A stretch of 64,000 bases of DNA, taken from a virus. Positions 20,660-53,476 of the stretch are shown piece by piece; within the stretch, counting starts at the first letter, position 1; each line of letters begins with the position of its first letter. Under the pieces are notes generated by a model. The model was given only the letters and a program-made list of their open reading frames with translations, ran no database searches and was not told the origin of the DNA. The stretch spans positions 32,001 to 96,000 of IMG/VR virus record IMGVR_UViG_3300005537_000002; one strand, written 5' to 3'. A program made the position numbers and the translations under genes.

Positions 20660-20866
20660 ATGAAAACACTATACGACGAGAACCACAGGTACACACCAGA
20701 CGCAACTGGTCTTAGCGCGAACGTAGGTAGAGCCCTTCACAGTATATTCAAGGACTACATAGAGTTGGGCTACTCCCCGATAGAAATATCCCATATTATG
20801 CATAGCGTCGTGTTCGACCTCGAGATGGAGTCGATACTTGACGCAGACGAGGATTCTAATGCCTAA
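20660..20866 (+). CDS. hypothetical protein
   Basis: 68-aa ORF overlapping the polA start. Confidence 0.5.
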   Translation: MKTLYDENHRYTPDATGLSANVGRALHSIFKDYIELGYSPIEISHIMHSVVFDLEMESILDADEDSNA

Positions 20867-25181: not shown

Positions 25182-26246
25182 GTGCCTGTTCGTACTATTT
25201 CTGCTTCACAACTGCAAGAGTTCTCTACTTGCAGACGACGCTGGGGCTATAGTGCCCTAGAACATTTGGATAGCCGGAGACAGTCGTATGCTTTATGGTT
25301 CGGCATCGGGGTACACCACGCACTAGATCGATTTTATTCCTTAGGCTTCGACCCTTCTGTAAGCTTTGATACGTGGTGGTCTACTGAGACTACCAAGCAA
25401 CAGGCAGGTCAACGTTCGCTGTTGGGTGAACGGGATATTGAACAGAAGTGGCTTGAGTTACGTCAGTTAGGTATAGGCATGCTATCACACTATCGGGAAT
25501 GGGCTCGTCTGCAGGACGACTTCGAGGTACTAGCAACAGAGGCGGACTTTCGGGTACCCATTCCCGAAACCGAAGGTCACTTAGTTGGCAGGTTCGACGG
25601 CATTATACGACTATGGCGCAGACCAAACGACGTGTATTTACTCGAACACAAGAGCTACAGTATCAAACCCCCACAATACTTCCTGCTACTCGACGAACAG
25701 ACTAACGTGTATCAGTGGGCAGCTACAAAACTACTTGCAAGTGGAGATTTAGCACAGTACGGTGTACCTGAAACCGCCACTGTTAAGGGTGTGTTGTATA
25801 ACGGGTTGAGGAAAGCCGTTCCAACTACTCCCCCGCTTGCTGACGACGGTAAGAGTTTACTAAGGGACGCGCGTATTGCTACAACGTATGAGTTGTATTT
25901 AGCTTCTATACGGGAGCACGACTTTTCGCCGAGTGACTATGCTGATGTGCTAGTGAAGTTGAAACTACGTGGTAACCGCTATTTCTATCGAGAGTGGATA
26001 CAAAGGTCAGCAGAGGAGCTGACTAGACTAGAGCGGAGACTGACCTCGCAATTTAGGGCCATGTCTAACCCGGAAGTTGCCCTACTTCCGTCGCCTACGT
26101 GGGATTGCTACTGGCGGTGTCCGTACTTCTCGTTGTGTGTCGCTGAAAACACTGGGAAGGATTATGACGAGATCAAAAGGACGCAGTACGCTCCTAGGGT
26201 ATGGTCTAGAGAGAAAACACCGTCAACGACTGACGATTTCCTGTAG
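25182..26246 (+). CDS. PD-(D/E)xK RecB/Cas4-like exonuclease 1
   Basis: ISASQLQEFSTCRRRW, GIGVHHALD, GRFDG, LLEHKS, QTNVYQW, CYWRCPYFSLC. Confidence 0.8.
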   Translation: MPVRTISASQLQEFSTCRRRWGYSALEHLDSRRQSYALWFGIGVHHALDRFYSLGFDPSVSFDTWWSTETTKQQAGQRSLLGERDIEQKWLELRQLGIGMLSHYREWARLQDDFEVLATEADFRVPIPETEGHLVGRFDGIIRLWRRPNDVYLLEHKSYSIKPPQYFLLLDEQTNVYQWAATKLLASGDLAQYGVPETATVKGVLYNGLRKAVPTTPPLADDGKSLLRDARIATTYELYLASIREHDFSPSDYADVLVKLKLRGNRYFYREWIQRSAEELTRLERRLTSQFRAMSNPEVALLPSPTWDCYWRCPYFSLCVAENTGKDYDEIKRTQYAPRVWSREKTPSTTDDFL

Positions 26247-26325: not shown

Positions 26326-27492
26326 ATGAGGAGGCAACAAGTGACCCAAGACAACAAACGCAACCCGTTTAGAGTCGTTGCCCTACCCGTAAGACGCATA
26401 AGTGCCACTGGTATAAGCGAATTTAAGGAATGTAGGAGGAGATGGTACTACTCTAACGAGTCCCAGTTGAATTTGGAGCCTAAACGTGGGACAGTTGCGT
26501 ACGACTTTGGGAGAAAGATTCATCATGCGTTAGAGCGACACTATCGGGATGGTGTGCATGCATCCGATGCGTTTGTAGAAGTATTTGATAGTGATGTAAC
26601 TCGTATGGTAGAAGTGGGGATGATGGGAGATGACTATAGCAAGTACGAAGCTATGCGTGAATTGGGTGTGCAAATGCTGACGTATTACGAGAACTGGGCT
26701 AGCACTCACGACGACTTCAAGATGCTGCACACCGAGTTTGAATTTGAAATCCCGCTAGTCGACTATGACGGAACAGACTTAGGGGTCTATTTTGTGGGGC
26801 GTATTGACGGTATCGTCCGTACTAATGACGGCCTGTATTATTTAATCGAGTACAAGACGGCTGGTACACATTTGGCCAGTGACGTCATGCTACTAGATGA
26901 GCAGACAGCTAGATACCAGTTAGCGGCTCAGTGGTTGATACGCAATGGTAAAGTACCGGGTATACCTAGTGATGCTATACTAAGTGGGGTTATTTACACG
27001 GCACTGCTTAAAAAGATAGTTAAACCCCCACTACTACTCAAAAACGGAAAAGGGTTGAGTAAGGATATAGTCACCAACCCAACTACGTACGAGCTGTATC
27101 TGAAAGCGATACAGGACAATGGCTTTAACGAAAGCGACTATGCAGCTGTGCTAGATAAGCTGCAGAACACGTACCCAACTGGTACGATATTTGTGCGTAG
27201 AGAGTATGTGTTGAGGAGTAAGGACGAGATGCAGGGTCATGCACACAGGCTAATGTTGGAAGTGAGGGAGATGTCGAGAGAGAACCTACCTATTTATCCT
27301 AGTCCCAAATGGGACGGCTCTTGCGCGTGGAGTTGTCCGTATCATGCGCTGTGTGTGACGGAAAATATAACTGGAAATCTCGGGGGTGAGGTAGACTTCC
27401 GCATACGTAACGAGTTTGTGCAGCGTCCACCAAGGGGAGGAGTCTACCAACAGCCACGAGAAGGAGGATACGACGGCCAAGAGTTAGGCTAG
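26326..27492 (+). CDS. PD-(D/E)xK RecB/Cas4-like exonuclease 2
   Basis: ISATGISEFKECRRRW, GRKIHHALE, GRIDG, LIEYKT, QTARYQL, CAWSCPYHALC. Confidence 0.8.
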   Translation: MRRQQVTQDNKRNPFRVVALPVRRISATGISEFKECRRRWYYSNESQLNLEPKRGTVAYDFGRKIHHALERHYRDGVHASDAFVEVFDSDVTRMVEVGMMGDDYSKYEAMRELGVQMLTYYENWASTHDDFKMLHTEFEFEIPLVDYDGTDLGVYFVGRIDGIVRTNDGLYYLIEYKTAGTHLASDVMLLDEQTARYQLAAQWLIRNGKVPGIPSDAILSGVIYTALLKKIVKPPLLLKNGKGLSKDIVTNPTTYELYLKAIQDNGFNESDYAAVLDKLQNTYPTGTIFVRREYVLRSKDEMQGHAHRLMLEVREMSRENLPIYPSPKWDGSCAWSCPYHALCVTENITGNLGGEVDFRIRNEFVQRPPRGGVYQQPREGGYDGQELG

Positions 27493-32473: not shown

Positions 32474-34048
32474 GTGTGTAGTATATCCGGTGTGATTATG
32501 CCCGAGGGTACTTCGTACCTGAGTACGAGGCTACGGCATATCATAGATCAGGCATGTGAGAGAGGTCGTGACAGTTGGGGTACTGTCACGCTGCATACAG
32601 ATCATACATACAGCAGCGTACGCTATACTGGTAGTCCGATCGAGACAGGGGTCGCTGGTACGTATCTACCTAGTAGCGCTAGGATATGTATATCGACATG
32701 TAGGGCGGAGCCAACTACAGAGTGGGTACGGGAGAAAGGTATATACGATATACCACCATTCGTACATGGGAATTGGGCTTGTGCTCATAATGGATGCATA
32801 GCCAACGATAAAGAGTTGGTACAGCGGTATGGACTATCGTTGGGTACGTCTATAGATACAGCGGTTATACCGGCCGTGTTGGACAAGATATGTCCCGACG
32901 AACTCGATCTGGATCGTATACAGGAGTTCCTACGAGACGAGATCGAGGGTTCGTATGCTCTTGCGCTTGTGAATAGACGACATCCGGATACGCTTATCCT
33001 AGCCGTGAACTATCAACAACTATACATCGCGTATGATCAGCAGGCGGGTGCGTTGTTCTTCACCTCTATGGAAGAACACCTGTACGATGATACAGATATA
33101 CACCGCAGACTCGTACAGGGAGGGGTAGTAGAAGTACCTGCATACTCCATGCAGGTAGTACATCTTCCATCCCATAGGGGTAGTACATCTGTCATGGGTA
33201 GCAGTACTACCCTGCATGCAGGGTACAGTACAGATACAGGGCAGGGTAGTAGTACAGCCATGCAGGGTACAGTACAGATACAGGGCAGGTCCTTAAGGCA
33301 GTCCAGGGATGTACATAAGGCCCTGGTGGTCTGTAGTGGTGGACTAGACAGTACAGTAGCTGCTAGGGAGATGCAGGTACGTGGGTACGATGTTACACTG
33401 CTGCACTTCCTGTACAAGTGCAGGGCACAGGAGGGTGAGGTAGAGGCTGTACGTAAGATAGCAGCTGCCATGAACGTACCCTACCTATTCTGGGAGACAG
33501 ACTTCTTCACCAAGGTAGGTGGGTCTAGACTCACTAACACACACGGAGAGATCAACCGAGAAGGTGGTGGAATAGCAGGAGCAGAACTAGCTTGGGAGTG
33601 GTGTCCCGCAAGAAACACTGTCTTTCTAGCTATGGCTGCAGCTATAGCCGAAGTGCACGACTTTGAGTGTATTGTGTTAGGAGCAAATTTAGAAGAGGCC
33701 GGAAGTTATGCAGATAATACTCTCCCATTCATACGTAAGTTGGATGCAGTACTACCGTATGCACTCAATCTACACCACTACGTACGACTGGAGGCACCTC
33801 TCGTCAACCTGATGAAGCACGAAATCGTAGCATTGGGCCTGAAAAATGGTGCGCCGATGGAGCATTCGTACTCGTGCTATGAGTACGGAGAGCACCACTG
33901 TAACAACTGCGGTCCTTGCTTCTTACGTAAGACGGCGTTTAAGATGAACGGGACAGTGGATCCAGTGTTCGAGCATCTGTCTGAGGACGAGTTTTGGAGT
34001 GGGTGCGTTCCCTACTCCAAACGATCGGATCCAGCCATAGTTCGTTAG
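32474..34048 (+). CDS. queC: class II glutamine amidotransferase-QueC fusion (Gat-QueC)
   Basis: N-terminal MCSISG (Ntn Cys2), RGRDSWG, HNGCI, DT; QueC part SGGLDS, CPARNTVFL, SCY...HCNNCGPCFLR. Confidence 0.9.
   Translation: MCSISGVIMPEGTSYLSTRLRHIIDQACERGRDSWGTVTLHTDHTYSSVRYTGSPIETGVAGTYLPSSARICISTCRAEPTTEWVREKGIYDIPPFVHGNWACAHNGCIANDKELVQRYGLSLGTSIDTAVIPAVLDKICPDELDLDRIQEFLRDEIEGSYALALVNRRHPDTLILAVNYQQLYIAYDQQAGALFFTSMEEHLYDDTDIHRRLVQGGVVEVPAYSMQVVHLPSHRGSTSVMGSSTTLHAGYSTDTGQGSSTAMQGTVQIQGRSLRQSRDVHKALVVCSGGLDSTVAAREMQVRGYDVTLLHFLYKCRAQEGEVEAVRKIAAAMNVPYLFWETDFFTKVGGSRLTNTHGEINREGGGIAGAELAWEWCPARNTVFLAMAAAIAEVHDFECIVLGANLEEAGSYADNTLPFIRKLDAVLPYALNLHHYVRLEAPLVNLMKHEIVALGLKNGAPMEHSYSCYEYGEHHCNNCGPCFLRKTAFKMNGTVDPVFEHLSEDEFWSGCVPYSKRSDPAIVR
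33215..33289 (+). repeat. 31-bp direct repeat inside the Gat-QueC linker
   Basis: CATGCAGGGTACAGTACAGATACAGGGCAGG at 33215-33245 and 33259-33289. Confidence 0.9.
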
Positions 34049-38184: not shown

Positions 38185-38651
38185 TGCCATCAACGTATTA
38201 CGAGGACTATGTAATACCTCCACCATTTACATTACCAGCTAAACAGGTTGGACAGATGACTCTACCGGAAGCGTTATCGATGGCACAGTGTGTAAGCGAC
38301 CCGTACGCTAAGAGGCGTAGGAAGGGGTATAGCATGATCACTGTGCTATATCTGCTGACGTATAGCGTGGTTGCGTTCGACATAGATAGTATAGTTTACT
38401 GGAACATCGAAACGTGGACCTTTCGAGTCGTGCTGTGGATAGCAGTTATGATAGTATGGGCTAACTTCGTTAGCGGAACCCTACGTATACGGCCGACTAG
38501 ACGGCAGGTTGTAGAGATGGCTACGACACTAAGTATGAAAGCAGTCTCGATCTCTAAGCTGGCACGCGGTCGGAAAATCTCTTTCCCAAAGGTTATACCA
38601 AACGAGGATACCACTACCTACTTAAGAGCCATTAAGCGGAAGCTAACGTGA
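38184..38651 (+). CDS. two-TM membrane protein
   Basis: Two hydrophobic helices; translationally coupled to the GT2 gene. Confidence 0.55.
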   Translation: MPSTYYEDYVIPPPFTLPAKQVGQMTLPEALSMAQCVSDPYAKRRRKGYSMITVLYLLTYSVVAFDIDSIVYWNIETWTFRVVLWIAVMIVWANFVSGTLRIRPTRRQVVEMATTLSMKAVSISKLARGRKISFPKVIPNEDTTTYLRAIKRKLT

Positions 38652-39994
38652 GATCTGTTTATAAAAGTATTACGTATAGTGCATTGTGGATGGTTACGGC
38701 TGCTATAGCAGCTTCAACTAGGTTTATACAACCGCATCCATTCGATACGCCGTTTCTCGATACGATGAGACACGTTATAGTCTTCTTTGCGTCTATACTA
38801 CTAGCGAAATACTTCTTCTATATGGTAGTAGCTCCATTCTACGACGTAATAGAGAGTCGCAGAGTCGTTACTACGCTTATGGCGGACTACTACCCGTTAG
38901 TGTCAGTGATGATACCTGCCTGGAACGAAGAGGTAGGTCTACTAGGTACGGTCAAGACGCTACTAGACTCCACCTACAGACATGTGGAGCTCGTCATTGT
39001 GAACGATGGTAGCACAGATGGCTCGCACGCAATGATGCTCAACTTCGTCAGTAAGTATAACGAGCAGATGACTGACGTACCCGAGTACAAGCGCATACGT
39101 ATACTCTACCACTACCAACCAAACGGAGGCAAGGGAAGCGCACTAAACACAGCGATCCAACTGTCTCACGGAGCTATACTACTGTCCATTGACGCTGACT
39201 GTCACGTTCACGCCCGCTGTATTGAGGAGTTCGTGAACGCATTCCGTAACCCTAAAGTTATGGCTGCCGTCGGTAACGTGAGGGTAGGCAATACAAAGTC
39301 ACTCGTGGGTACAATCCAGTACCTAGAATATATCTTCGGATTCTACTTTAAGAAAGCGGACAGCTTGCTCAACACCATCTATATTATCGGTGGAGCGGCT
39401 GGTGCATTCCGGCGGGAAGTGTTTCAAGTGATTGGTGGGTATAATACCAAGAACATTACGGAAGACATTGAGCTATCCGTCCGAATACAGGAACAAGGTT
39501 GGAAAATCGTTTACTGTCCTGGAGCACTCGTACTAACTGAGGGAGCGTCTACACTCACAGGCTTGAAGAAGCAACGCTACCGTTGGAAGTACGGTCGGTT
39601 CCAAACGTTTATGCAGCATCGCAACTTGTTCTTCTCGACTGAGCGTAGGCATAACAAGTTGCTGTGCTGGGTGATACTACCGCTAGCGATATTTGGGGAG
39701 GTGCAACTCGGACTTGAGTTACTATTTATCACTATGCTATACGTATTCGCACTCCTATCGGGTGACTTCTCGGCATTTCTGAGTGGTGTATTTGTAGTCT
39801 CTCTCATGTTCGGCGTACAAGCACACGACAGTGGAGAGTTCAACATCAGCACTCTACTGCTAGCACCTATAGGGTGGCTACTATTCTACGTCACCACCTA
39901 CGTCGAGGTGTACGCACTTATCCGGAGTATATGGAATCTAATCCGCAAACGCGACGTACAGTGGCAGAAGTGGAAACGAACCGGTGTACAATGA
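38648..39994 (+). CDS. processive GT2 glycosyltransferase (PgaC/IcaA/chitin-synthase-like)
   Basis: SVMIPAWNE, VNDGSTD, NGGKGSALN, IDAD, TED, KQRYRW (QxxRW) and multiple TMs. Confidence 0.9.
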   Translation: MRSVYKSITYSALWMVTAAIAASTRFIQPHPFDTPFLDTMRHVIVFFASILLAKYFFYMVVAPFYDVIESRRVVTTLMADYYPLVSVMIPAWNEEVGLLGTVKTLLDSTYRHVELVIVNDGSTDGSHAMMLNFVSKYNEQMTDVPEYKRIRILYHYQPNGGKGSALNTAIQLSHGAILLSIDADCHVHARCIEEFVNAFRNPKVMAAVGNVRVGNTKSLVGTIQYLEYIFGFYFKKADSLLNTIYIIGGAAGAFRREVFQVIGGYNTKNITEDIELSVRIQEQGWKIVYCPGALVLTEGASTLTGLKKQRYRWKYGRFQTFMQHRNLFFSTERRHNKLLCWVILPLAIFGEVQLGLELLFITMLYVFALLSGDFSAFLSGVFVVSLMFGVQAHDSGEFNISTLLLAPIGWLLFYVTTYVEVYALIRSIWNLIRKRDVQWQKWKRTGVQ

Positions 39995-40893
39995 CAAACA
40001 AAGAAAAAGGGTTCACTATGGCGGTGTGTATAAATTGTGGAAAAGGACTTTCTCTATGGAACAGACTTGTGAGACAGACCATATGCAGTGAATGTGGTGA
40101 ATACTTTCAGAACGAACGTTATAGGTGGCTGTCTGCGATCGAGAGGGACTTTTCTAGAGGAGGTGTATCCTTAGAGTTGGAGACCCAAATGTATCAACAC
40201 TTCCAAAGTATACATATGCCTGAGTATGAAGGCATCCCTGTCATAGAAAAGATGAGATACTTTAGAGAACTTTCGGAAGTGCAGTGGGGTAATGTACCAA
40301 CCATTCGTATAGATAGGCATCTAGACTCAGATGAGTACGCCTACTTCTCGTTCGAGACTACGTACTATAATAAACAGCTAAGACCCGTCGAGGGTATATT
40401 GGTAGGTACTAACAAGAAGTGCTACTTCCACCCCATATCTGGCGTAGGTGGAGTACATATCAATTGGGGTAATATAAGCCAAGTGAAGGAGGAGTCCGTA
40501 CGAGTATACACCCATCCCAGACCTCTACGAGGTGTTACAGAACAGTTGGTAGTCAAGAGGGTTTTAAGAATCTCCGTATCTGCCAGTTCCGGTGGAGGGG
40601 ATTACTACGTAAGAGACCCGTTTAAGGCTTGTATCTACATCGACACTCTTGTACGTATTTGGAAGAGACAACTAATCATTCGTAGAGAGTTAGGCACATA
40701 CGGAGACGTACCTAATCACGTAAAGTCTGATGTGTATAAACGAGATAAGGGATGCTGTCAACAATGCGGCTACAGTGGGGACTACATCGAGTATGACCAC
40801 ATCATACCTCGGAGTAAGGGAGGGTCGAATACGGTAGATAATATACAACTTCTTTGTAGGAGATGTAATTTGCAAAAGGGAGATAGGCTGTAA
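39991..40893 (+). CDS. HNH endonuclease with N-terminal zinc ribbon
   Basis: CINCG..CSEC; C-terminal RDKGCCQQCG..IEYDHIIPRSKGGSNTVDNIQLLCRRCN. Confidence 0.85.
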   Translation: MTNKEKGFTMAVCINCGKGLSLWNRLVRQTICSECGEYFQNERYRWLSAIERDFSRGGVSLELETQMYQHFQSIHMPEYEGIPVIEKMRYFRELSEVQWGNVPTIRIDRHLDSDEYAYFSFETTYYNKQLRPVEGILVGTNKKCYFHPISGVGGVHINWGNISQVKEESVRVYTHPRPLRGVTEQLVVKRVLRISVSASSGGGDYYVRDPFKACIYIDTLVRIWKRQLIIRRELGTYGDVPNHVKSDVYKRDKGCCQQCGYSGDYIEYDHIIPRSKGGSNTVDNIQLLCRRCNLQKGDRL

Positions 40894-40919: not shown

Positions 40920-42167
40920 TTGAGTCCGTATACAGCAACCGTCAAGAAGAGACGGTCACGCAAACTATATACTAAGTACGATGCTATAGTACGGTGGGTA
41001 GTCGTGGCATGTGCTAGCATGTTGTTGAATGCAGCATTATTAGATGTCGCATTATGGATATACCCCTTACAGAGTCTGAGTCAGCTAGTAGTGTGGAATA
41101 CGCTGGTGTCAGCTATCGCTTCGATATGCGGCATGGTAGGGTATCGATTGTGGGTATTGGGGAGATACCGTATGCTAACAGCAGAGGAGTTCGGTAAATG
41201 TCTATCTATACTCACTTTCGAGTCTTTGGTGGACACGATGTTAGCTGTACTAAGCCAGTTCGCTAGTATTATGCTAGTGGGAGACTTATTACCCACTACT
41301 ACTATGAAACTAATTGCGGTTATAGGGACGTTCATCCTGTCCACTGTGCTACTTAAACAATGGATGGGTAAGAAGCCTGTATATGAGTGCATCATGAAAC
41401 CTTCTCGAGCGTCTATACGTAGACAACACTACACGTTGTCAGTCGTAATGGTAGCACAGGACAATGCGGATTATATTCAGCATACTGTACATCAAATGTA
41501 CGAGTCCCTAACGTACATGGTCGATGACTTCGAAGTCATCGTAGTCAACGACGGTAGTGCCGATCATACAGGTGTGCTGTTAGAGGCTATATCTATCATG
41601 ACCCCGCGAGTTAGGGTAGTGAATTACGCCAAACCTCGAGGATACTCTACAGCTTTAGCGACCGGACTCAAACTAGCGTGTAAGGAACTGACATTCATTA
41701 CCTCTTCAGACGACCAGTTCGACATACAGGATCTAGCGTTCTTCCTTCCGTATATGTGTGAGTACGACGCGGTTTTCGGTTACCCCTTCGGCGAGACTGG
41801 CAGTCGTTTCGAGAGATTCTGTACGTGGAGTTGGAGTACGTTAGTCAGTCGGACGTTCGGACTTAACGTAAGAGACGTCGACTGCGAATTCAAACTATTT
41901 AGAACTGACTTCTTTACGGACTATGAACTGACTGTCACTGACTCTCGCTTAGTGTATGTAGACATGTTGTATCAGTTAGCACAGTCGGATAGGTCGTATA
42001 CCGAAATGGGCGTACTACAAACACCAACTGTACTAGAACGTAAGAGAGACACAAGCCTGCTGAGCTTGGTTAAGAACGCGTCTGCACTACGAAAGTATGT
42101 TAAGGAACGGAAAATCAGTAGTTACGGGCACCACCTACACTCGAACGCTGCGATACGTACCTCTTGA
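40920..42167 (+). CDS. membrane-anchored GT2 glycosyltransferase (DPM-synthase-like)
   Basis: Four N-terminal TMs; LSVVM, VVNDGSADHT, GYSTAL, SSDDQFD, DVDCEFKLFR. Confidence 0.8.
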   Translation: MSPYTATVKKRRSRKLYTKYDAIVRWVVVACASMLLNAALLDVALWIYPLQSLSQLVVWNTLVSAIASICGMVGYRLWVLGRYRMLTAEEFGKCLSILTFESLVDTMLAVLSQFASIMLVGDLLPTTTMKLIAVIGTFILSTVLLKQWMGKKPVYECIMKPSRASIRRQHYTLSVVMVAQDNADYIQHTVHQMYESLTYMVDDFEVIVVNDGSADHTGVLLEAISIMTPRVRVVNYAKPRGYSTALATGLKLACKELTFITSSDDQFDIQDLAFFLPYMCEYDAVFGYPFGETGSRFERFCTWSWSTLVSRTFGLNVRDVDCEFKLFRTDFFTDYELTVTDSRLVYVDMLYQLAQSDRSYTEMGVLQTPTVLERKRDTSLLSLVKNASALRKYVKERKISSYGHHLHSNAAIRTS

Positions 42168-44142: not shown

Positions 44143-45207
44143 GTGTTAAAGCCATTCAGTCAAATCGTTAGAGTACCCTCTACGGTAGGGTCTCTACCCT
44201 ACATCACATCATACTACCAATCCCCCTCTTGTAAGACCCTACATACTAAGTTCTGGCCCCTAGTCGAACAGCACACACAGTTTATAACGCTCTCTGCTGG
44301 AAACGGTGGAGTTGCATACGAGGCTGCGAGTAAAGGACTTAAGGTTGCGGCATACGACCGTTCGGTGTACACGATACTCTCGCTAGACGACGTACTCAAC
44401 CGAGATACGCTACCTCAACTATCCTATGACCTGCCTACCAACGAGTGGTTCGAACGTTGGTGTTCTCCTATTACACCTAGTACCACCAACGTAGCACAAG
44501 AAGGCGTACTAGTTGCCAGACATACGACACAGTTAGCTCCACACCTTTCGCTCGAGACTGCTAAGTACCTAGACACCTTACTCATCTGCAAGAACTACTG
44601 GCCTCTATTGATGAGTTCGATTGGCAGAACGCTACTACAACTGTGCTCCAATCGGGGTGTACGCTGGTCGAACTTAATGCCAGACGGTAGATCGACTAGG
44701 GAACTTACACCGGAAGAAGCCTTTCACTCGATAGCTAGGAGCACCTGGCGTACGAAGATGTTCTCAGACAGTTTGGATCACCACCTCGAGCATAACCTGT
44801 TCCAGCACAGCCTATTTGATGACCTACTGTCAGACTTCAGAGACTCTATATACCCAAACACACTCGTACACATTGATCCGGTGTATCCTTGGGAGACCTC
44901 ACTATATGAACGCTCTCATCACTACTTCTGTATGTCAGCTATCGACAGTATCCTAGTGCAGTCGGAATCAGCGTCAGTTCGGTCACCTTCGTACTGGCCC
45001 TCTACTATCTCAACCGACCTGACACTTTGGTTAGCTTGGTTTGGTGAGAGGCTACGTCGACTAAAGGATCGTACGGAAGCTACAATCGTAGTGACGTTTG
45101 GGTATCCCACTCCGACTGTACTTGAGACTGCTAGGTATCTTACGTCGTTGCTCCCTACTGCTAGTTGGGAGCAGTCGATTGCTGGTTGCATGCTTGTTAT
45201 CCATTAG
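44143..45207 (+). CDS. divergent amino-methyltransferase-fold protein C
   Basis: FITLSAGNGG, AAYDRSVY, HIDPVYPW; shares WFER and YLDTLL with paralog B. Confidence 0.55.
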   Translation: MLKPFSQIVRVPSTVGSLPYITSYYQSPSCKTLHTKFWPLVEQHTQFITLSAGNGGVAYEAASKGLKVAAYDRSVYTILSLDDVLNRDTLPQLSYDLPTNEWFERWCSPITPSTTNVAQEGVLVARHTTQLAPHLSLETAKYLDTLLICKNYWPLLMSSIGRTLLQLCSNRGVRWSNLMPDGRSTRELTPEEAFHSIARSTWRTKMFSDSLDHHLEHNLFQHSLFDDLLSDFRDSIYPNTLVHIDPVYPWETSLYERSHHYFCMSAIDSILVQSESASVRSPSYWPSTISTDLTLWLAWFGERLRRLKDRTEATIVVTFGYPTPTVLETARYLTSLLPTASWEQSIAGCMLVIH

Positions 45208-45216
45208 GAGCTGCCT

Positions 45217-45750
45217 ATGACGACTAAGTATTGTTGCGGATGTCAAAAATGGCTGTCGCTACATGAGTTTGGTAAAGACAAGTCGACTAAGGATGGTCTC
45301 AACGCTAAGTGTAAGGCTTGCATCAATGCTAGAGCCGCAATCAGCCGTGCGAAGCAGACTAGCGAGCAGTATGAGAGAGCGTCAGAGTACCAGAAGCAGT
45401 ACTATCGAGACCACCGAGAGCTGTTAGTAGCACAGGCTGCTATGCGTCGGGAGACACAGCGAGAGCATATACGGGCGATTGACAAGAGGTCTCGCTTAAA
45501 GCATAGGGCGAGCACGCAAGCTAGTACGTCTGCGTACCAGGCACGTCTGAGAGGTCAGTACGTAGCTCCGGTCTCATTGGACGTACTGTACGCTAGAGAC
45601 AAAGGAGTCTGTGCTTTATGTGGGGAGCCAGTCAACCGGTCAGAAGCCTCTATCGACCACATCGTACCCCTGTCGGAAGGTGGCTTACACGGTCCAGATA
45701 ACGTACAACTCGCCCATCGCAGTTGTAATTCTCGAAAGCAAAACGGTTAA
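45217..45750 (+). CDS. HNH endonuclease
   Basis: N-terminal CCGC..FGKD..DGL...CKAC; C-terminal CALCG..SIDHIVPLSEGG..NVQLAHRSCN. Confidence 0.85.
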   Translation: MTTKYCCGCQKWLSLHEFGKDKSTKDGLNAKCKACINARAAISRAKQTSEQYERASEYQKQYYRDHRELLVAQAAMRRETQREHIRAIDKRSRLKHRASTQASTSAYQARLRGQYVAPVSLDVLYARDKGVCALCGEPVNRSEASIDHIVPLSEGGLHGPDNVQLAHRSCNSRKQNG

Positions 45751-45782
45751 ATATGTATTAGTGGGCACCCATTTTTGTGCTC

Positions 45783-45812
45783 TTGTAAAACACCATGTCG
45801 AACATTTATAAT
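45783..45812 (+). promoter_or_regulatory. sigma70-type promoter
   Basis: TTGTAA-N18-TATAAT. Confidence 0.7.
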
Positions 45813-45864
45813 ATATAATAAGAAGTAAATACTACTTCTTATGCGAACAGACCTTGGAGGTTAT

Positions 45865-46068
45865 ATGCATAGATGTGTAAAGTGCGGTGCAGGGGATGCA
45901 AAGTGGAATACGAAGAGAGGCTGGTGGTGTGAAGATTGCGTACTAGCCTACCAAGGCCCACTCGCAGACTTAGTTGAGGGCATCCACGTAGCTATCGAGC
46001 TACTAGAACCAGCTATCGAACGGGCTAAACGGAAGCTTACTTCTACGAGACGTCCGTACTTGAACTAA
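45865..46068 (+). CDS. small zinc-finger protein
   Basis: CVKC...CEDC; GGAGG RBS. Confidence 0.55.
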   Translation: MHRCVKCGAGDAKWNTKRGWWCEDCVLAYQGPLADLVEGIHVAIELLEPAIERAKRKLTSTRRPYLN

Positions 46069-46127
46069 GACCCTCACATACAACTGCATATTGCACCCCA
46101 GAAGTGCAGACAGAAAGGTGAACACCG

Positions 46128-46289
46128 ATGACTGTTACTGCAGACACTTCACAAAGGCACTCGCTGCTTATGCTGGCGAAGTGCTCCACTTGCGGACTCT
46201 GCGACCAAAACGACTTCAAACCCGTACATGGGTACGGCAACCCCAACGCAAGGGTCATTTCTAGATATAGAGGTGATCATGTTCTCTAA
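46128..46289 (+). pseudogene. orphaned 5' fragment of the UDG-polymerase gene (53 aa)
   Basis: Encodes SLLMLAKCSTCGLCDQNDFKPVHGYGNPNARVI, 27/33 identical to residues 14-46 of the ORF at 46982; own GAAAGGTG RBS. Confidence 0.75.
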
Positions 46290-46988
46290 ACCTTGTACGA
46301 AGTGTAGCGCTCCCGAAAGGCAGAAGGGCCAGTCTCTATGCGTAACCTGTCAACGTGAGTACGAGAGGCTGTGGCGAGAGAAAAATAGAGAGAAGATTAA
46401 CCACCAATACAAACAGTGGCGTGCGAATATGACAGAAGGTCAGCGCGAACGTGAAAGAGAATCCGGTAGAAGAGGAGAAGCAAAAGTTCGACAGAAGTTA
46501 CTCGAATACAGACTAGAACACCCGTGCATCGATTGTGGAGAGACTAATCCTATATGTCTACACTTCGATCATGTAACCGGTGAAAAACGTATGGATATCA
46601 CCCACTTACGAACGTACGGGTGGCCAAGCGTAGAAAAGGAACTTCAAAAATGTGTAGTGCGATGTGGGAACTGTCACGTCAAAAGACACTTCCTAACTAA
46701 AGGTACTACAAAGTACGGACCTAGTAAACATCTCTCGAAAGCAGCGAACGCTAGGAGAGATGTGTTTAGGCGCTATCTCCAACTGTGGGGGTGTATAGAC
46801 TGCGGTTTACAAGATGTAGACTGTTTGGAGTTCGATCACGTCTTCGGAGAGAAGTTAGCAGACGTAAGTATACTAATCGACAACGATACCAAAACTGGGA
46901 GGCTACAGTCGACGAAATCGCTAAGTGCGAAGTAGTCTGCGTAAACTGCCACGCTAAACGTACTGAGAGTAGGGGGTATCAATGGTAG
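46279..46988 (+). mobile_element. tandem double-HNH homing endonuclease gene with a frameshift in the second HNH domain
   Basis: CIDCG..LHFDH..KCVVRCGNCH, then CIDCG..LEFDH; the second domain continues in another frame (WEATVDEIAKCEVVCVNCH) after AAAA at 46891-46894. Confidence 0.75.
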
Positions 46989-49900
46989 TAGAAACTTCAT
47001 GGGTGGGTTCAGCAGACAGAAGTCTGCTAGCACTATGCAAGTGCTCAACTTGTGGTCTATGCAATCAGAATGACTTCAAACCAGTAATGGGTTACGGAAA
47101 TAGTGGAGCTAGAGTTATATTCGTAGGGGAAGCAGCCGGCCGTAATGAACATATCCAGGGTATCCCGTTTGTAGGAGAGTCCGGTAGGCTCTTGACAGCT
47201 GTGCTCCAAAGGGTACAGCTGTCAGATGGAAGTTACCTGCAAAGAGATGACGTCTACCTTACGAACGCTTGTCTGTGTCGACCAGAAGACAATCGTACAC
47301 CGTCAGCTGCAGAAATCGTGGCTTGCAACGAGCGTTTGAAGGCGGAGATCAAATCTCTTCCTAACCGACACTTGATTGTAGTGTTGGGTAGTAGTGCGAT
47401 CAAGGCTGTAACTGGCAAGCACCAGAGTATGAACGCCATGCACGGTAAGATTGAGTGGAGTGCTGAGTTTCAGTGCTTCATTACGTATACGTGGCACCCA
47501 GCGTACATATTGAGGACTCCGAATGACTTTCCTGACCTTGACTACGTCATGAGTCAGATACCGAGCATTCTGGATACGCCTAAAGGGCCTATCCAATTTC
47601 AGCCGCCGAAGTATATCGTAGAAGACTCCATCGATATGGCGATTAAGCGATTGCTACACTTGCTTGATCACGTCGAAGGTGATGTCGCTTGTGACATCGA
47701 AACGACCAACTTGGAGTTAGCACAGCCAACTAACTTCATTCTCGAGATCGGCTTCTCTTGGGAGGATGGAAAGGCGTACATCTTACCTCACCACATCTTC
47801 AACGACAGTCAAGTGAAGGTAGTACTGATACGCTTCCTGGAAAAGAAGAGTGTGCGGTTTGTATACCACAACGGGATGTTCGACATTGCGTGGTTGCGCT
47901 ACAAGTTGGGAGCTAAACAGGCTTGGATTGGTGCGGACACGATGTTGATGTCTTCACTCTATGATCCAAGAGGTAGAGGCGGTGGAGAAGGAGATGAAGT
48001 GCAGGGGGTTGGAACGACACACGGCCTAAAGCCATTAAGCCGCAAACACTGTCAAGCACCAGCTTGGGAAGATGACATTCATGCGTACCTTCCGAATAAA
48101 GAAGCGAGCTTCGAACTCATACCGGCAGATGTCCGACAGAGGTATATGAGCTTCGACTTGGTGTACACGTTACGGCTCTTTAGGAGACTAACAGAGCTGT
48201 TAGAAAAGGAAGATCCCTCCGCTGAAGGTTACCCAACTCCACTTGAGTGCCACTACAATCTGCTCATACCCGCGGCTAACATGCTAGCGGACATTGAGTC
48301 TCACGGTATCCTCATCGACCGTAAGTACGTGGAGGAACTGAGAGACAAGATGGAAGAGCAGATGCGGGTCTCTAACGAGAAGATCCGAGAGGCCACTAAA
48401 GAATTCTTCAGACGAGACGGTCAAGAGATTACGTTACGTAAGTCGAGAGACGAAGAAGTAACCGAGCGTAAACGTAAGCTCGTAGGTACAGAAGTCCGGT
48501 GGAAAGCACGTAAGCGATATGACAAGTCAGCTAAGGCTTGGGTGCCGGACACTCCTGTACCGGACGGAGTGAGACAGCTGTACGAATACGAGTACATAAC
48601 TAGGGTAGTTAAGAGGTACTATGACGTTGTGCTTAGGGGTGAAGAAGCCGTTGAACACCTAGCGAACGAGTTCAACGTACGCTCTGCTTTACACTTACGA
48701 CACATTCTCTACGACCACTTAGGCTTACCGCCAGTTGAAGGTAAAGAAGTCACTGACAAAGATCAACTAGAACGATACAAGCATGCTCACCTCATTATTC
48801 CACTCATAATGGAATACAAGAACGTGAACCGGCTATATGGCATCTTCATCAAAGGGATGCTAGCTAGATTAGATCCGTATGACCGGTGTCACCCACGATT
48901 TAACATTCATGCAACTCGTACAGGACGATTGTCGAGTTCTAATCCTAATAGTCAGAACATCCCAAGGGATGGACTCATCAAACGTATGTTTACCGTTCCA
49001 AAGGGATACGTTTTTGTCGAAAGTGACTATAGCGGACTTGAGTTCACTGTCATTGCGTGGTACTGTAACGCTCACGTCAATCCAGCATTCCACGATCCGA
49101 CTTTAGCACAGGACGTAGCTGGCGATATCCACCAAGCCTTTGCTGAAGAAGCGTTCGCAGAGCTACTAGCGAAGATCCGAGCGAACAAACGTAGTCTATC
49201 GGCGCTCGAACAGATCATGCGTGAAGAAGTTATCATGACGGAGAAGCGCATCGAGCAGGAGCGAGATAAGCGAACCGATCCGGAGGAAGTAGCTTCACTA
49301 ATGCTGAAGCACGCACGCTTTATGGCAAAATTCTGTACCTTCGGCATTTTGTACGGACGTTCGGCTCACTCGCTAGCGTTTGATGATGATGGTATGCACG
49401 TCTCTCTCGAACAGGCTGAGGAGTACTTACGTAAGTTCTTCGCTAAGTATAATGGCTTGTACAGATTCTTGCAACAACAAACAAAGTACGCACTCGAACG
49501 TGGTTGGCAAGAGATGCCTAGCGGTAGACGAGCGAAGTATCCGTTCATCACTAGAGACAATCGGTCCCAAATTGAACGTCAGAGTTGGAACTCGCCTATT
49601 CAGGGAGGTGCAAGTGACATTTGCTTAGGGGCCTGTATAGACCTACAGAAAGAGCTAGTTGCTAGAGGTTGGGGTTACGTGCTCTTCATTGTACACGACG
49701 CTATCATGATGCAACTAAAAGAGGAGCATATGCATGAAGGTATTGCTCTTATGAAGTCGATCATGGAAGGAGTCACACAGAAACTAAAGTCGCCAGTTGA
49801 CTTTAGGGTTGAGACTAAAGTCGGTAAGAATTGGGGTGACGCAGTCGACATAGAAGTGGAGCACGAACTAGTACACCACCATACTAAAACTGCACACCAC

Positions 49901-50032
49901 GAGATTTCCAGTGACTGTTTCCAGTACGTGTTGTACACGTACACTGACAGCGAAACAGGCTTACCCAAAACGAAACGAGTCCCGCTATGTTCAGTACCGG
50001 TTGAAGACAGACAGGCAACTGTGCTAGCGTAA
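46982..50032 (+). CDS. family-4 uracil-DNA glycosylase fused to a family A DNA polymerase with 3'-5' exonuclease
   Basis: CSTCGL, GEAAG..E, PFVGESG, TNACLCRP, HPAY (UDG4); DIETT, HNGMFD; motif A SDYSGLE, motif B KFCTFGILYG, motif C VHDA. Confidence 0.9.
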   Translation: MVVETSWVGSADRSLLALCKCSTCGLCNQNDFKPVMGYGNSGARVIFVGEAAGRNEHIQGIPFVGESGRLLTAVLQRVQLSDGSYLQRDDVYLTNACLCRPEDNRTPSAAEIVACNERLKAEIKSLPNRHLIVVLGSSAIKAVTGKHQSMNAMHGKIEWSAEFQCFITYTWHPAYILRTPNDFPDLDYVMSQIPSILDTPKGPIQFQPPKYIVEDSIDMAIKRLLHLLDHVEGDVACDIETTNLELAQPTNFILEIGFSWEDGKAYILPHHIFNDSQVKVVLIRFLEKKSVRFVYHNGMFDIAWLRYKLGAKQAWIGADTMLMSSLYDPRGRGGGEGDEVQGVGTTHGLKPLSRKHCQAPAWEDDIHAYLPNKEASFELIPADVRQRYMSFDLVYTLRLFRRLTELLEKEDPSAEGYPTPLECHYNLLIPAANMLADIESHGILIDRKYVEELRDKMEEQMRVSNEKIREATKEFFRRDGQEITLRKSRDEEVTERKRKLVGTEVRWKARKRYDKSAKAWVPDTPVPDGVRQLYEYEYITRVVKRYYDVVLRGEEAVEHLANEFNVRSALHLRHILYDHLGLPPVEGKEVTDKDQLERYKHAHLIIPLIMEYKNVNRLYGIFIKGMLARLDPYDRCHPRFNIHATRTGRLSSSNPNSQNIPRDGLIKRMFTVPKGYVFVESDYSGLEFTVIAWYCNAHVNPAFHDPTLAQDVAGDIHQAFAEEAFAELLAKIRANKRSLSALEQIMREEVIMTEKRIEQERDKRTDPEEVASLMLKHARFMAKFCTFGILYGRSAHSLAFDDDGMHVSLEQAEEYLRKFFAKYNGLYRFLQQQTKYALERGWQEMPSGRRAKYPFITRDNRSQIERQSWNSPIQGGASDICLGACIDLQKELVARGWGYVLFIVHDAIMMQLKEEHMHEGIALMKSIMEGVTQKLKSPVDFRVETKVGKNWGDAVDIEVEHELVHHHTKTAHHEISSDCFQYVLYTYTDSETGLPKTKRVPLCSVPVEDRQATVLA

Positions 50033-50034
50033 TT

Positions 50035-50072
50035 CAAGTGGGCACCTAGTTTATAAACTAGGTGCCCACTTG
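50035..50072. terminator. 38-bp perfect palindrome followed by a T-tract
   Basis: CAAGTGGGCACCTAGTTTA|TAAACTAGGTGCCCACTTG then TTTTTT. Confidence 0.7.
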
Positions 50073-50099
50073 TTTTTTGGTTATTAATTCATATATAAT
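50070..50099 (+). promoter_or_regulatory. sigma70-type promoter
   Basis: TTGTTT-N18-TATAAT. Confidence 0.6.
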
Positions 50100-50148
50100 A
50101 TTATTAGAGGTAGAAAGTCATTTATATCGAGAAAGGTCAACAAAGACA

Positions 50149-51875: not shown

Positions 51876-52451
51876 ATGCTAGAATCGATAGAGACAACAC
51901 ACAACGGTTTCAGATTTCGTTCCCGAAAGGAGGCCCGTTGGGCTGTGTTTTTCGACACAGCCCAAATACCTTTCCTCTATGAACCGGAGGGCTTCAAGCT
52001 ATCATTCGATGCTTCGCAGAAAGACTACAGTTTCACTGACTCTGACGACATAGAGGAAACTCTATGGTACTTACCCGACTTTTGGCTGCCGCAACAAGAC
52101 TGCTATTGGGAAGTAAAGGGGGTAGAACCCGCAAGAATGGAAAACATTCGTGCGAAGAGACTAGCTTACGGGTCAGGTAAAGATGTATTCATCAGCTTCG
52201 GTGACATATGGCTCCCAGAAGAAGGTACAAATACAGACTATTGTAGCGCTCACGTCTTCTTCGGTAGTGGAGGTTGGGACCTAGCATACTGGTGGTGCCA
52301 ATGCGACTATTGTGGCAAACTCCAACTACAGTTTGAGGGTCGAGTAGAGCGCTGCTCTTGTAAACAGACTGAACGTAGGCTTAAAGGAGGAGGTACAAAC
52401 TCCGATCGATTAGTAAGGGCCTATAAAGCAGCTCGTAGTGCTAGATTTTGA
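51876..52451 (+). CDS. PD-(D/E)xK-like nuclease, conserved phage protein
   Basis: FRSRKEARWAVFFD...YEPEGF...YLPDFWLP...EVKG. Confidence 0.75.
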   Translation: MLESIETTHNGFRFRSRKEARWAVFFDTAQIPFLYEPEGFKLSFDASQKDYSFTDSDDIEETLWYLPDFWLPQQDCYWEVKGVEPARMENIRAKRLAYGSGKDVFISFGDIWLPEEGTNTDYCSAHVFFGSGGWDLAYWWCQCDYCGKLQLQFEGRVERCSCKQTERRLKGGGTNSDRLVRAYKAARSARF

Positions 52452-52462
52452 GGAGTTGGTTC

Positions 52463-53476
52463 GTGATTGCTACAAACACGTTAGTGTGGACGGATGCTAG
52501 CGTGAAAACGTTAGCGCAGTTGAGCGTTGGAGACAAGGTCGTTTCCAACGCTCAACTTAAGCAGGTTCGAACGGTCGAACGGACTGAAGTAGATAGGACG
52601 CTTACTATACGTGCAGCAGGTGTGCAGGATGTGTGTATGTCACTCGACCAGCAAGTGTATAGTCGTAAGCCTAAAGATGTCGAATGTACGTGGCGTATAG
52701 CGGCTGAGCTAGATACGGAAGATTTTATTTGGGTTCCTCGTCTGACAGCCACGTCTTGGAACACTGACTATCGAAGTGTTGCACTAACTCGAGAGCTTGC
52801 CAACGTTATTGGCTGGTACTTAGCTGTAGGAAATGCTATACCTAGCACAGGTATGGTGTACTGGAACTTTACTCGAGCAGAGGAGGAATACGCCGCACAA
52901 CTCATGTCAGACCTGCTAGTCGTGCGTGCATTCTTCGTTACGGAATCATCGCACAATAGAATCGGTATGCCTCGTATGCAGCACACGGGCATCAATGGCA
53001 TACTGGTTAAGTTCGGGAGTAAGCGTATGTCTGACTGGCTGAAACTGAACTTCGGCAACGCTTCGGCTAACAAACACATTCCTCCGTGGGTGTATAGAAC
53101 GTCTCCTAAGTTTATTGACCAACTGCTAGCCTCGTATTCGCATGCCGACGGTATTGCGGGTCGTGAGTGGCTAGTTAGCACAGTGTCAATTGACCTAGCT
53201 TACGGCTTGCAACGCTTGCTCAATAAACTTGGGAAGTGCATACGGGTCATCACTAAAGATAACACGTACGGGTACCCCACACTCCATCAATGGGAGTACG
53301 TACTGTACTACGGGTGGCATAGAAGGCAGTCTCAGAAATTCGTCGGCGCTTATAAAGACCACTTCGAGTGTGCTATAGAACGGATTACGCCCTCGAATAA
53401 ACGTATGGAGGTAGGGACTATCCACACTGTAGGCTCGCTACCCTACGCAGTTCCGTACTTAGTGATGCCTACTTGA
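52463..53476 (+). CDS. free-standing degenerate intein (Hint plus LAGLIDADG) with no exteins
   Basis: Block A-like IATNTLVWT..VKTLAQLSVGDKV; LAGLIDADG-like VIGWYLAVGN and LLASYSHADG; STVSIDLAYGLQRLL; no Cys1, TxxH or His-Asn. Confidence 0.75.
   Translation: MIATNTLVWTDASVKTLAQLSVGDKVVSNAQLKQVRTVERTEVDRTLTIRAAGVQDVCMSLDQQVYSRKPKDVECTWRIAAELDTEDFIWVPRLTATSWNTDYRSVALTRELANVIGWYLAVGNAIPSTGMVYWNFTRAEEEYAAQLMSDLLVVRAFFVTESSHNRIGMPRMQHTGINGILVKFGSKRMSDWLKLNFGNASANKHIPPWVYRTSPKFIDQLLASYSHADGIAGREWLVSTVSIDLAYGLQRLLNKLGKCIRVITKDNTYGYPTLHQWEYVLYYGWHRRQSQKFVGAYKDHFECAIERITPSNKRMEVGTIHTVGSLPYAVPYLVMPT

Follow-up and report, generated by a model that had tools for sequence, protein, structure and literature searches.

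The window, a stretch of 64,000 nucleotides of virus DNA (IMG/VR record IMGVR_UViG_3300005537_000002, positions 32,001 to 96,000), carries a UDG-polymerase gene that is preceded on the same strand by an HNH endonuclease gene and, upstream of that, by a short orphan ORF that repeats the polymerase N-terminus. The features of this locus, in window positions, are as follows.

45783–45812, plus strand: candidate sigma-70-like promoter, TTGTAA-18-TATAAT (10/12 match), lying within an AT-rich spacer
46114–46120, plus strand: ribosome-binding site AAAGGTG of the orphan ORF, 7 nt 5' of the ATG at 46128, read from the sequence
46128–46289, plus strand: orphan ORF of 53 codons, made up of polymerase N-terminus codons 1–44, nine unrelated codons (SRYRGDHVL) and TAA
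46149–46259, plus strand: copy 1 of the duplicated segment, from the CxxC of the family-4 UDG cluster through ...GYGNPNARVI; GC3 0.64–0.73
46253–46278, plus strand: predicted 11-bp hairpin across the left junction (−14.1 kcal/mol, z = −3.85; equalled by 0 of 200 shuffles)
46270–46277, plus strand: HNH ribosome site GAGGTGAT, which is the 3' arm of the junction hairpin, the 5' arm being the last bases of copy 1
46279–46935, plus strand: HNH endonuclease gene, intact frame of 218 aa (phrog_2255, E = 3.3e-27)
46735–46988, plus strand: second HNH domain, ~45% identical to domain 1 and frame-broken by a one-base change at 46872/46878
46971–46976, plus strand: polymerase ribosome site AGGGGG, inside the shifted HNH frame
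46982–50032, plus strand: complete polymerase of 1016 aa, with a family-4 UDG domain, a 3'–5' exonuclease and a family A polymerase
47009–47119, plus strand: copy 2 of the duplicated segment, which runs on into the remainder of the polymerase; GC3 0.30

Across the 99-nt core of the duplication (46161–46259 against 47021–47119), 27 of 33 amino acids and 63 of 99 nucleotides are identical. The nucleotide differences number 7, 6 and 23 at the first, second and third codon positions, which places 23 of the 36 at third positions, and different codons are used at 17 of the 27 identical residues. An earlier sequence-only reading of this DNA had reported both the shared peptides and the predominance of changed synonymous positions, and both hold. 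When all open frames of the 177,637-bp genome were compared with one another by BLASTP, the two copies paired at E = 1.6e-13 (37 aa, 76% identity), and they are the sole short, high-identity local duplicate in the whole genome. Chance is far from explaining this N-terminal duplication, which is real and has no counterpart elsewhere in the genome. Homology runs from around codon 8–10 to codon 44 (copy 1) or codon 46 (copy 2) and ends sharply at 46259 and 47119, respectively; the start-to-start spacing of the copies is 860 nt, and their best shared DNA tract is 77% identical over 62 nt. The remaining local repeats of the genome are tandem whole-gene paralogues with 30–50% identity, and neither the all-frame BLASTP nor the local repeats revealed another arrangement in the same genome that pairs an endonuclease with a spare gene end.

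Synonymous sites are saturated between the two copies (pS 0.83, compared with a pN of 0.27), and because of this, most of the divergence would have arisen under protein-level selection in separate genomes. To judge from this substitution pattern, which differs from the dN/dS of ~0.5 expected for an in-place duplication with one decaying copy, the divergence shows that both copies have a past as working genes apart from one another. Saturated synonymous sites in a conserved protein fit the import of one copy by recombination. As for which copy was imported, the polarity signal in the base composition is suggestive and weakly marks copy 2 as the odd one. Its GC3 of 0.30 compares with 0.52 for the rest of the polymerase gene, and its N-terminus-minus-rest GC3 difference lies at the 1.2% quantile among 172 ORFs (5.2% for copy 1); a GC3 change point in the polymerase after codon 46–57 is marginal (permutation p = 0.05). 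Copy 1 is atypical too, with a GC3 in the top 1–2% of the genome, and by composition does not look cleanly native.

The polymerase that copy 2 opens has the marks of a fusion of a family-4 UDG with a family A polymerase: an N-terminal CxxC, a GE(A/G)(P/A)G motif, a later C-x16-C pair and HPAY, followed by the 3'–5' exonuclease and PolA. In family 4 UDGs, these cysteines ligate an Fe–S cluster. The protein matches PF03167 (5e-29), PF01612 (6e-11) and PF00476 (6e-66), aligns from residue 19 with the PDB entries 1L9G/1VK2 (E = 5e-26) and 1UI0 (E = 2.5e-21), and shares its three domains with 47 polymerase homologues. It is uncertain whether the gene deserves the label 'essential', because the genome has a second complete Pol I-type gene (20838–23648).

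Between the copies lies an endonuclease gene of the free-standing phage type, an assignment that rests on the PHROG profile and on homologues, with the paired CxxC zinc ligands, the DH general base and the C-terminal NCH seen in domain 1. The gene also matches phrog_3106 (4e-19), and no Pfam HNH model matches it at E ≤ 0.01. Its intact frame comprises an N-terminal CxxC-x11-CxxC finger, a complete HNH domain 1 (CIDCG...FDH...CGNCH) and the first half of domain 2, the halves of which are in different frames (profile positions 92–141 and 142–191). The shifted frame ends with TAG at 46986–46988, overlapping the polymerase ATG (ATGGTAG). A double-HNH gene whose intended stop overlaps the polymerase start had been described from the sequence alone, and we recover both elements, with the second domain broken. 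The gene is, by its frame, not simply dead, in that it retains a complete first domain, and the broken second domain suggests an ageing or twice-invaded element. Homologues of the enzyme (P0050, P0051 and those in 176 phage records) are single-domain proteins of ~130–160 aa. In the contexts examined (P0050, P0051 and Variovorax phage V45v66), none adjoins a polymerase gene, and V45v66 has no homologue of the window polymerase. A further HNH gene and a small Zn-ribbon ORF lie upstream of the orphan, in 45217–46068.

The orphan ORF is cut just 5' of the UDG motif FVGEAAG. It had been read as a first copy with its own ribosome-binding site that stops soon after the similarity ends, and this is what we find: the stop (46287–46289) comes nine codons beyond the end of similarity. 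Because that stop falls within the conserved ...RIVFVGE... block common to solved family-4 UDGs, the orphan alone would not be expected to fold into a UDG domain. The promoter candidate lies in a spacer with a GC content of 0.29, 5' of a 75-codon Zn-ribbon ORF, the orphan, the HNH gene and the polymerase; sigma-70-like sites are no more numerous in the region than in shuffles, so it is a candidate only.

At the left junction, the HNH ATG follows the end of copy 1 homology by 19 nt. The predicted hairpin buries the HNH ribosome site, and the orphan frame reads through it, ending 8 nt beyond the HNH ATG. Coupling of HNH translation to that of the orphan is plausible in such an arrangement. Because the orphan keeps its ribosome site, and its frame crosses the hairpin and stops so soon after the HNH start, HNH synthesis is probably both gated by the hairpin and coupled to orphan translation. 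Control by hairpins that sequester the ribosome site is established for several homing endonuclease genes of phages, namely I-TevI, I-TevII, I-TevIII, segB and mobE (PMC2988022). More tentatively, the orphan could be a working leader of the element, with retained promoter, ribosome site and 53-codon frame, the translation of which would melt the hairpin, switch on the endonuclease and tie the nuclease to the original expression signals of the polymerase. The opposite GC3 values of the two copies (0.73 and 0.30, both in the tails of the genome) would then be kept by selection against repeat-mediated loss of the cassette. We hold this extension to be possible, with a good deal of doubt.

We reasoned that a homing-endonuclease cassette, which brought with it a spare replacement for the 5' end of the polymerase gene, probably gave rise to this locus. 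The two sharp homology ends and the 860-nt spacing delimit the putative unit:

46260–47119, plus strand: putative inserted cassette of 860 nt, comprising the HNH ribosome site, the HNH gene, the polymerase ribosome site and replacement codons 1–46

This unit lies within the UDG-polymerase gene at codon 44/45, immediately 5' of the conserved FVGEAAG. The old start (46128–46259) is left upstream as the orphan, and the new start at 46982 opens a complete polymerase frame; because the unit supplies a ribosome site, an ATG and 46 codons of N-terminus, the polymerase can be read whole without splicing. The result is an endonuclease ORF flanked by diverged copies, of which one continues into the intact gene and the other breaks off where the insert begins, as in mORF-type hybrids (below). 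We infer the polarity and the homing step, which would run as follows. The nuclease would cut near codon 44/45 in a relative without the insert; during repair, the orphan would provide the left homology arm and the polymerase body the right arm, and the cassette would be copied in. With 36% of their nucleotides different, the copies would no longer offer the target and would also be kept from losing the insert by direct-repeat recombination. Consistent with one co-evolved unit, the junctions are tight, with 19 nt to the HNH ATG and with the polymerase ribosome site and ATG in or overlapping the HNH frame. The odd GC3 of copy 2 and the location of the polymerase ribosome site in the HNH 3' end likewise fit the arrival of the HNH gene and copy 2 together. 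Against the cassette model stand the HNH homologues that elsewhere do not lie beside polymerases, giving no link of the enzyme lineage to the target, together with the broken domain 2, the marginal change point and the atypical composition of copy 1. The sequence-only reading had proposed that a free-standing HNH endonuclease invaded the polymerase 5' end and brought a replacement, cleavage-resistant N-terminus. The layout, the lack of intron evidence, a divergence that fits the import of one copy and the odd GC3 of copy 2 speak for that proposal; they do not extend to the HNH enzyme as the cause, to a resistance of copy 2 against cleavage, nor to which copy is native.

The cassette idea is not new in kind and mirrors the mORF gene hybrids of fungal mitochondria. 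In these hybrids (Allomyces macrogynus atp6; Glomus sp. atp6, atp9, cox2 and nad3), an endonuclease ORF separates an inserted terminus of foreign origin from the displaced native one, and the foreign origin of the inserted end was shown by phylogeny (PMC3630166). The duplicated atp6 ends are 63.5% identical in nucleotides and 91% in amino acids (PMC3630166), compared with 64% and 82% here. In both settings, an endonuclease ORF lies between diverged copies of a terminus, the copy joined to the body is, or in the phage would be, the working one while the other is displaced, and no splicing is needed. The hybrids, however, have their 3' end replaced, with the native C-terminus left downstream, whereas in the phage the 5' end is replaced, and for that reason the cassette must carry a ribosome site and a start codon. 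The fungal endonucleases are LAGLIDADG or GIY-YIG enzymes, often in phase, in an organelle; the phage enzyme is of the HNH type, in another frame and with its own hairpin-masked ribosome site.

Among phages, the free-standing seg and mob genes of T4-like phages (intronless homing) also place an endonuclease gene beside or inside a conserved replication gene, with a hairpin over the ribosome site, and are expected to spread by double-strand-break repair with co-conversion of the flanks, but they occupy intergenic positions or divide a gene into two complementary parts, and no differently spelled duplicated end is described for them (PMC2988022). Endonuclease insertion has produced genes in pieces with mobE in nrdA of Aeromonas phage Aeh1, mobA in T4 gene 60 and seg43 in gene 43 of phage 25 (PMC2988022). 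There, as here, the endonuclease gene occupies a functionally critical, conserved part of a gene of an essential pathway, and function is kept without an intron. The halves of such genes are complementary and reassemble, whereas in the window the downstream ORF is complete and the upstream piece redundant. We therefore rejected a gene in pieces, given that the downstream ORF has the whole N-terminus (UDG alignment from residue 19) and the upstream ORF duplicates residues ~10–46. SPO1-like Bacillus phages (SPO1 gene 31, CampHawk) have the same polymerase architecture (~25% identity) in a gene that an HNH homing endonuclease has invaded, but the insertions are group I introns deep in the polymerase domain, without exon duplication. 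The intron endonuclease of the SPO1-like UDG-PolA gene goes by the name I-HmuI.

To place the locus among relatives, several collections were searched, and the main limit on the interpretation is that neither the polymerase nor either copy has a relative closer than ~40% identity in them. The nearest polymerases, in a search of 5.8 billion proteins, are 38–40% identical. Megablast of 45800–50100 against 50,697 phage records gave no match; tblastn of the polymerase peaked at 26.6% identity in the 30 best records listed, with every one of the 2,192 records below 60%. A peptide-pattern scan of IMG/VR returned nothing, and a degenerate DNA pattern for QNDFKPVxGYGN had 0 matches in viral and metagenome contigs. 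With HMMER against 1.84 billion representative proteins, the orphan matched only the polymerase of the window, and polymerase residues 1–66, used alone as query, matched only themselves. Neither an insert-free allele nor a donor lineage was found in the collections searched. The polymerase contexts of three distant relatives have no upstream HNH gene and no duplication, and they do not share the gene order of the window. A GmrSD_N gene directly adjoins the polymerase in two of these relatives; in the third, only a 30-residue ORF lies before the contig end.

Recombination could also have left this layout as a scar, with the endonuclease a mere passenger. While modules were exchanged with a related phage (~80% protein identity), an illegitimate crossover would have swapped everything from the HNH gene to a point inside the polymerase and left the resident 5' end behind. 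The nuclease gene would just have happened to lie 5' of the donor polymerase and would have played no part. The saturated synonymous divergence and the compositional step after codon 46–57 fit this course of events equally well; the HNH gene is decaying, its homologues have no association with polymerases, and the upstream region with its further HNH gene and Zn-ribbon ORF suggests a plastic spot. Yet the break falls exactly 5' of a highly conserved catalytic motif, as is typical of homing targets, the junctions are tight and include a built-in hairpin and signals that overlap, and an irrelevant nuclease would sit poorly with the recurrence of this layout, again beside endonuclease genes, in fungal mitochondria. 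We regard this course of events as unlikely, although it deserves serious consideration.

The polarity could instead be reversed. Copy 2 would then be native, and a foreign polymerase 5' fragment with its HNH gene would have landed in the upstream spacer, from a donor in which the nuclease gene interrupted the polymerase. The high GC3 of copy 1 for this genome points that way, as does the hairpin, which ties the end of copy 1 to the HNH ribosome site as if the two belonged together. Copy 2, however, deviates more from its own gene than copy 1 does; an illegitimate join would have had to place the ATG and ribosome site of the polymerase within the HNH 3' end by coincidence; and no polymerase with a copy-1-like N-terminus occurs among the 1.84 billion representatives. 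On balance we find this origin improbable.

An assembler might have joined two strain variants in tandem, given that the record is a metagenome-derived virus genome. This is very improbable: no exact match between the copies is long enough for a mis-join (the 62-nt tract above being the best), the junction is a sharp switch to unrelated sequence with which it forms a hairpin, and the 177,637-bp genome has direct terminal repeats and is 100% complete by CheckV.

Least probable of all is that the orphan is a true exon 1 and that the 860 nt, as a group I/II intron or another bypass, are removed from the RNA to join ...ARVI to FVGEAAG: joining 46259 to 47120 would restore the frame of a full-length protein, and HNH genes do occur in group I introns of related UDG-PolA genes in the SPO1-like phages, but those introns lie deep in the polymerase domain without duplication, the 19 nt upstream of the HNH ATG are too short for a 5' ribozyme half, and an intron would hold neither a further start codon and ribosome site nor a conserved repeat of exon 1. 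Rfam gave no intron family at E ≤ 10 in 45000–48000 and none at gathering score in the whole window, although very divergent introns could escape the models, and with no ribozyme core detected, a group I/II intron was rejected; the claim that the gene is read without splicing thus met no contrary evidence. The only Rfam match at E ≤ 10 in 45000–48000 is a chance match to an lncRNA. Translational bypass was rejected, as the 860-nt gap has its own complete start, and so was an intein, as the polymerase has no Hint domain.

A full-text literature search found no published phage case of an endonuclease with a spare gene end. Because it has no relatives for comparison, the window locus is poorly suited to prove the mechanism. 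If the cassette model is true, a selfish nuclease can settle inside a conserved phage replication gene without intron or intein, by means of a spare, differently spelled gene end. Short 'hypothetical' ORFs 5' of endonuclease genes may then be displaced gene starts, which is a warning for annotation. To the fungal precedent the window adds a testable detail, the junction hairpin with its overlapping orphan ORF, which could regulate the nuclease.

The 5′ end of the polymerase gene is present twice, once in an orphan ORF (copy 1, 46149-46259) and once at the start of the polymerase ORF (copy 2, 47009-47119), with an HNH endonuclease gene in between. These genes and those immediately upstream are as follows:

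45217-45750, + strand: another HNH endonuclease gene (PF01844, 5e-12; phrog_1035, 2e-27), upstream of the orphan
45841-46068, + strand: 75-codon ORF encoding a CxxC-x16-CxxC ribbon, without a family match; directly precedes the orphan
46128-46289, + strand: orphan ORF of 53 codons, which starts MTVTADTSQRHSLLMLAKCSTCGLCDQNDFKPVHGYGNPNARVI and continues with nine unrelated codons and TAA
46982-50032, + strand: polymerase ORF of 1016 codons, which starts MVVETSWVGSADRSLLALCKCSTCGLCNQNDFKPVMGYGNSGARVI and runs on as FVGEAAGRNE...

We recovered the recoded duplication described in the sequence-only reading: over its 33 codons, 27 of 33 residues and 63 of 99 bases are identical, with 7, 6 and 23 differences at the three codon positions. 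Nei–Gojobori estimates over 37 codons gave a pN of 0.27 and a saturated pS of 0.83, which exceeds the 0.75 expected at saturation, but within sampling error. The best shared DNA tract is 77% identical over 62 nt, and there is no long exact stretch. When every open frame of the genome was compared with every other, the pair scored E = 1.6e-13. When local same-strand repeats were searched for under looser settings, it was the sole short, high-identity duplicate in the genome, the remainder being tandem whole-gene paralogues of 30-50% identity. The orphan does have a good ribosome site and an ATG, and its TAA lies nine codons beyond the end of similarity to the polymerase.

The polymerase carries Pfam domains for a family-4 uracil-DNA glycosylase (UDG), a 3′-5′ exonuclease and a family A polymerase. 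Residues 1-200 align, from residue 19, with solved family-4 enzymes (Thermotoga 1L9G and 1VK2, E = 5e-26; Thermus 1UI0); by this alignment, the duplicated stretch comprises the CxxC segment and the residues that follow it until halfway through the ...RVIFVGE... block. The orphan breaks off exactly before the conserved GE(A/G)(P/A)G motif. The three-domain layout and the pattern C-x2-C-x-L ... G-x-G ... VGEAPG are common to 47 database homologues, the closest of which is only 38-40% identical (5.8-billion-protein search). In the three relatives whose contexts were examined, the polymerase had neither an HNH gene nor a duplication beside it. Polymerase residues 1-66 matched this genome alone in a database search, the orphan matched only the window's own polymerase among 1.84 billion representative proteins (HMMER), and a degenerate DNA pattern common to both copies had 0 matches in IMG/VR and JGI metagenome contigs.

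The middle gene was identified as an HNH endonuclease by a match to phrog_2255 (E = 3.3e-27); Pfam HNH models do not detect it. Related proteins, from many Streptomyces, Mycobacterium and other phages, have a single domain and ~130-160 residues and carry the annotation HNH endonuclease. The gene is indeed double, as had been proposed: the first domain is complete, and the frame continues with no stop into a second that is ~45% identical to it. Domain 2 is frame-broken at 46872/46878, where there is no homopolymer run, and a genome profile search placed profile positions 92-141 and 142-191 in different frames. The intact frame stops at 46933-46935, and the shifted frame contains the polymerase ribosome site AGGGGG and ends at a TAG (46986-46988) that overlaps the polymerase ATG (ATGGTAG), in agreement with the overlap read from the sequence. 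Around the two database homologues whose contexts were examined (P0050 and P0051), no polymerase adjoins the HNH gene.

An 11-bp hairpin spans the left junction (46253-46278); the end of copy 1 forms one arm and the HNH ribosome site GAGGTGAT the other. Its predicted energy is -14.1 kcal/mol (z = -3.85; equally good folds in 0/200 shuffles). The orphan frame crosses the hairpin and ends 8 nt past the HNH ATG, and we infer that HNH translation is coupled to the orphan ORF. Control by hairpins that sequester the ribosome site is well established for phage homing endonuclease genes (PMC2988022).

Saturated synonymous divergence in a conserved protein indicates that the two copies diverged as working genes in different genomes, and that one was later imported by recombination; for an in-place duplication with one copy decaying, a much higher dN/dS is expected. 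The incoming unit appears to have been the HNH gene together with copy 2, because both junctions are tight, the 3′ end of the HNH frame contains the polymerase's translation signals, and GC3 is low over polymerase codons 1-46 (0.30 vs 0.52 in the remainder of the gene; 1.2% quantile, 172 ORFs), with a change point after codon 46-57 (p = 0.05). The GC3 of copy 1 (0.64-0.73) is atypical as well, which leaves this polarity insecure. Third positions of the copies lean opposite ways (0.73 in copy 1, 0.30 in copy 2), in the top 1% and bottom 4%, respectively, of the genome's 33-codon windows, a pattern that may be due to chance, to different donors or to selection against identical repeats. By analogy with the fungal mitochondrial hybrids described below, the nuclease would cut near codon 44/45 of an uninterrupted polymerase allele; homology arms for repair would come from the orphan and the polymerase body, and the respelled copy would shield the carrier and block loss through repeat recombination.

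An assembly chimera is improbable, given that no long exact stretch is common to the copies and that the junction folds into a specific structure. The claim that no splicing is involved was supported by an Rfam search of 45000-48000 (E <= 10), which returned no intron model, and the whole window gave no Rfam hit at gathering score. An intron would also have only 19 nt between the end of homology and the HNH ATG, and it would have to include a start codon with another ribosome site, as well as exon 1 repeated in conserved form. SPO1-like phages differ: their related polymerase gene has its HNH-bearing intron far inside the polymerase domain, and nothing is duplicated. Because the downstream ORF is complete, a split gene like that of Aeh1 nrdA is ruled out.

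A similar arrangement is known from fungal mitochondria, in the mobile-ORF gene hybrids, in which an endonuclease ORF imports a foreign C-terminus and the native one is displaced (PMC3630166; see also PMC7487136 and PMC6279837); duplicated atp6 ends in one such hybrid share 63.5% DNA identity and 91% protein identity (PMC3630166). Those hybrids are mitochondrial and involve the C-terminus, whereas the present case is in a phage and at the 5′ end. A full-text literature search found these organelle precedents and no phage case.

The virus record (177,637 bp; GC 48%), of which the window covers bases 32001-96000, has direct terminal repeats and is complete according to CheckV, with almost all long ORFs on the + strand. 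Megablast of 45800-50100 against 50,697 phage records gave no match and so no close sequenced phage; in tblastn, the best polymerase matches (~25% identical) came from SPO1-like Bacillus phages, among the 30 best of 2,192 records. Other genes of interest in the window are:

20838-23648, + strand: second family A polymerase, complete Pol I type (5′-3′ exonuclease N and SAM-fold domains, 3′-5′ exonuclease, PolA E = 2.8e-127)
25182-26246 and 26326-27492, + strand: tandem PD-(D/E)XK nuclease paralogues (PF12705; 39% identity over 340 aa)
32474-34048, + strand: glutamine amidotransferase domain-QueC fusion, 524 aa (PF06508, 2e-50)
39874-40893, + strand: third HNH gene (PF01844, 3.5e-15)

Two PolA genes in one phage are unusual. 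Because the genome also encodes the complete Pol I-type gene, which shares 26% identity with the UDG-polymerase over 480 aa, the UDG-polymerase may not be essential. The third HNH gene is flanked by two GT2 glycosyltransferase genes that differ from each other (38648-39994 and 40920-42167), in a GH18/GT2 cluster, and no duplicated gene end was detected around it. ORF 52448-53476 (+) matched no Pfam family at E <= 0.001. The amidotransferase-QueC fusion suggests a 7-deazaguanine DNA-modification pathway. Mobile genes seem to have piled up throughout 45208-46981. Between the HNH gene at 45217-45750 and the 75-codon ORF there is an AT-rich spacer (GC 0.29) that contains a promoter-like site.
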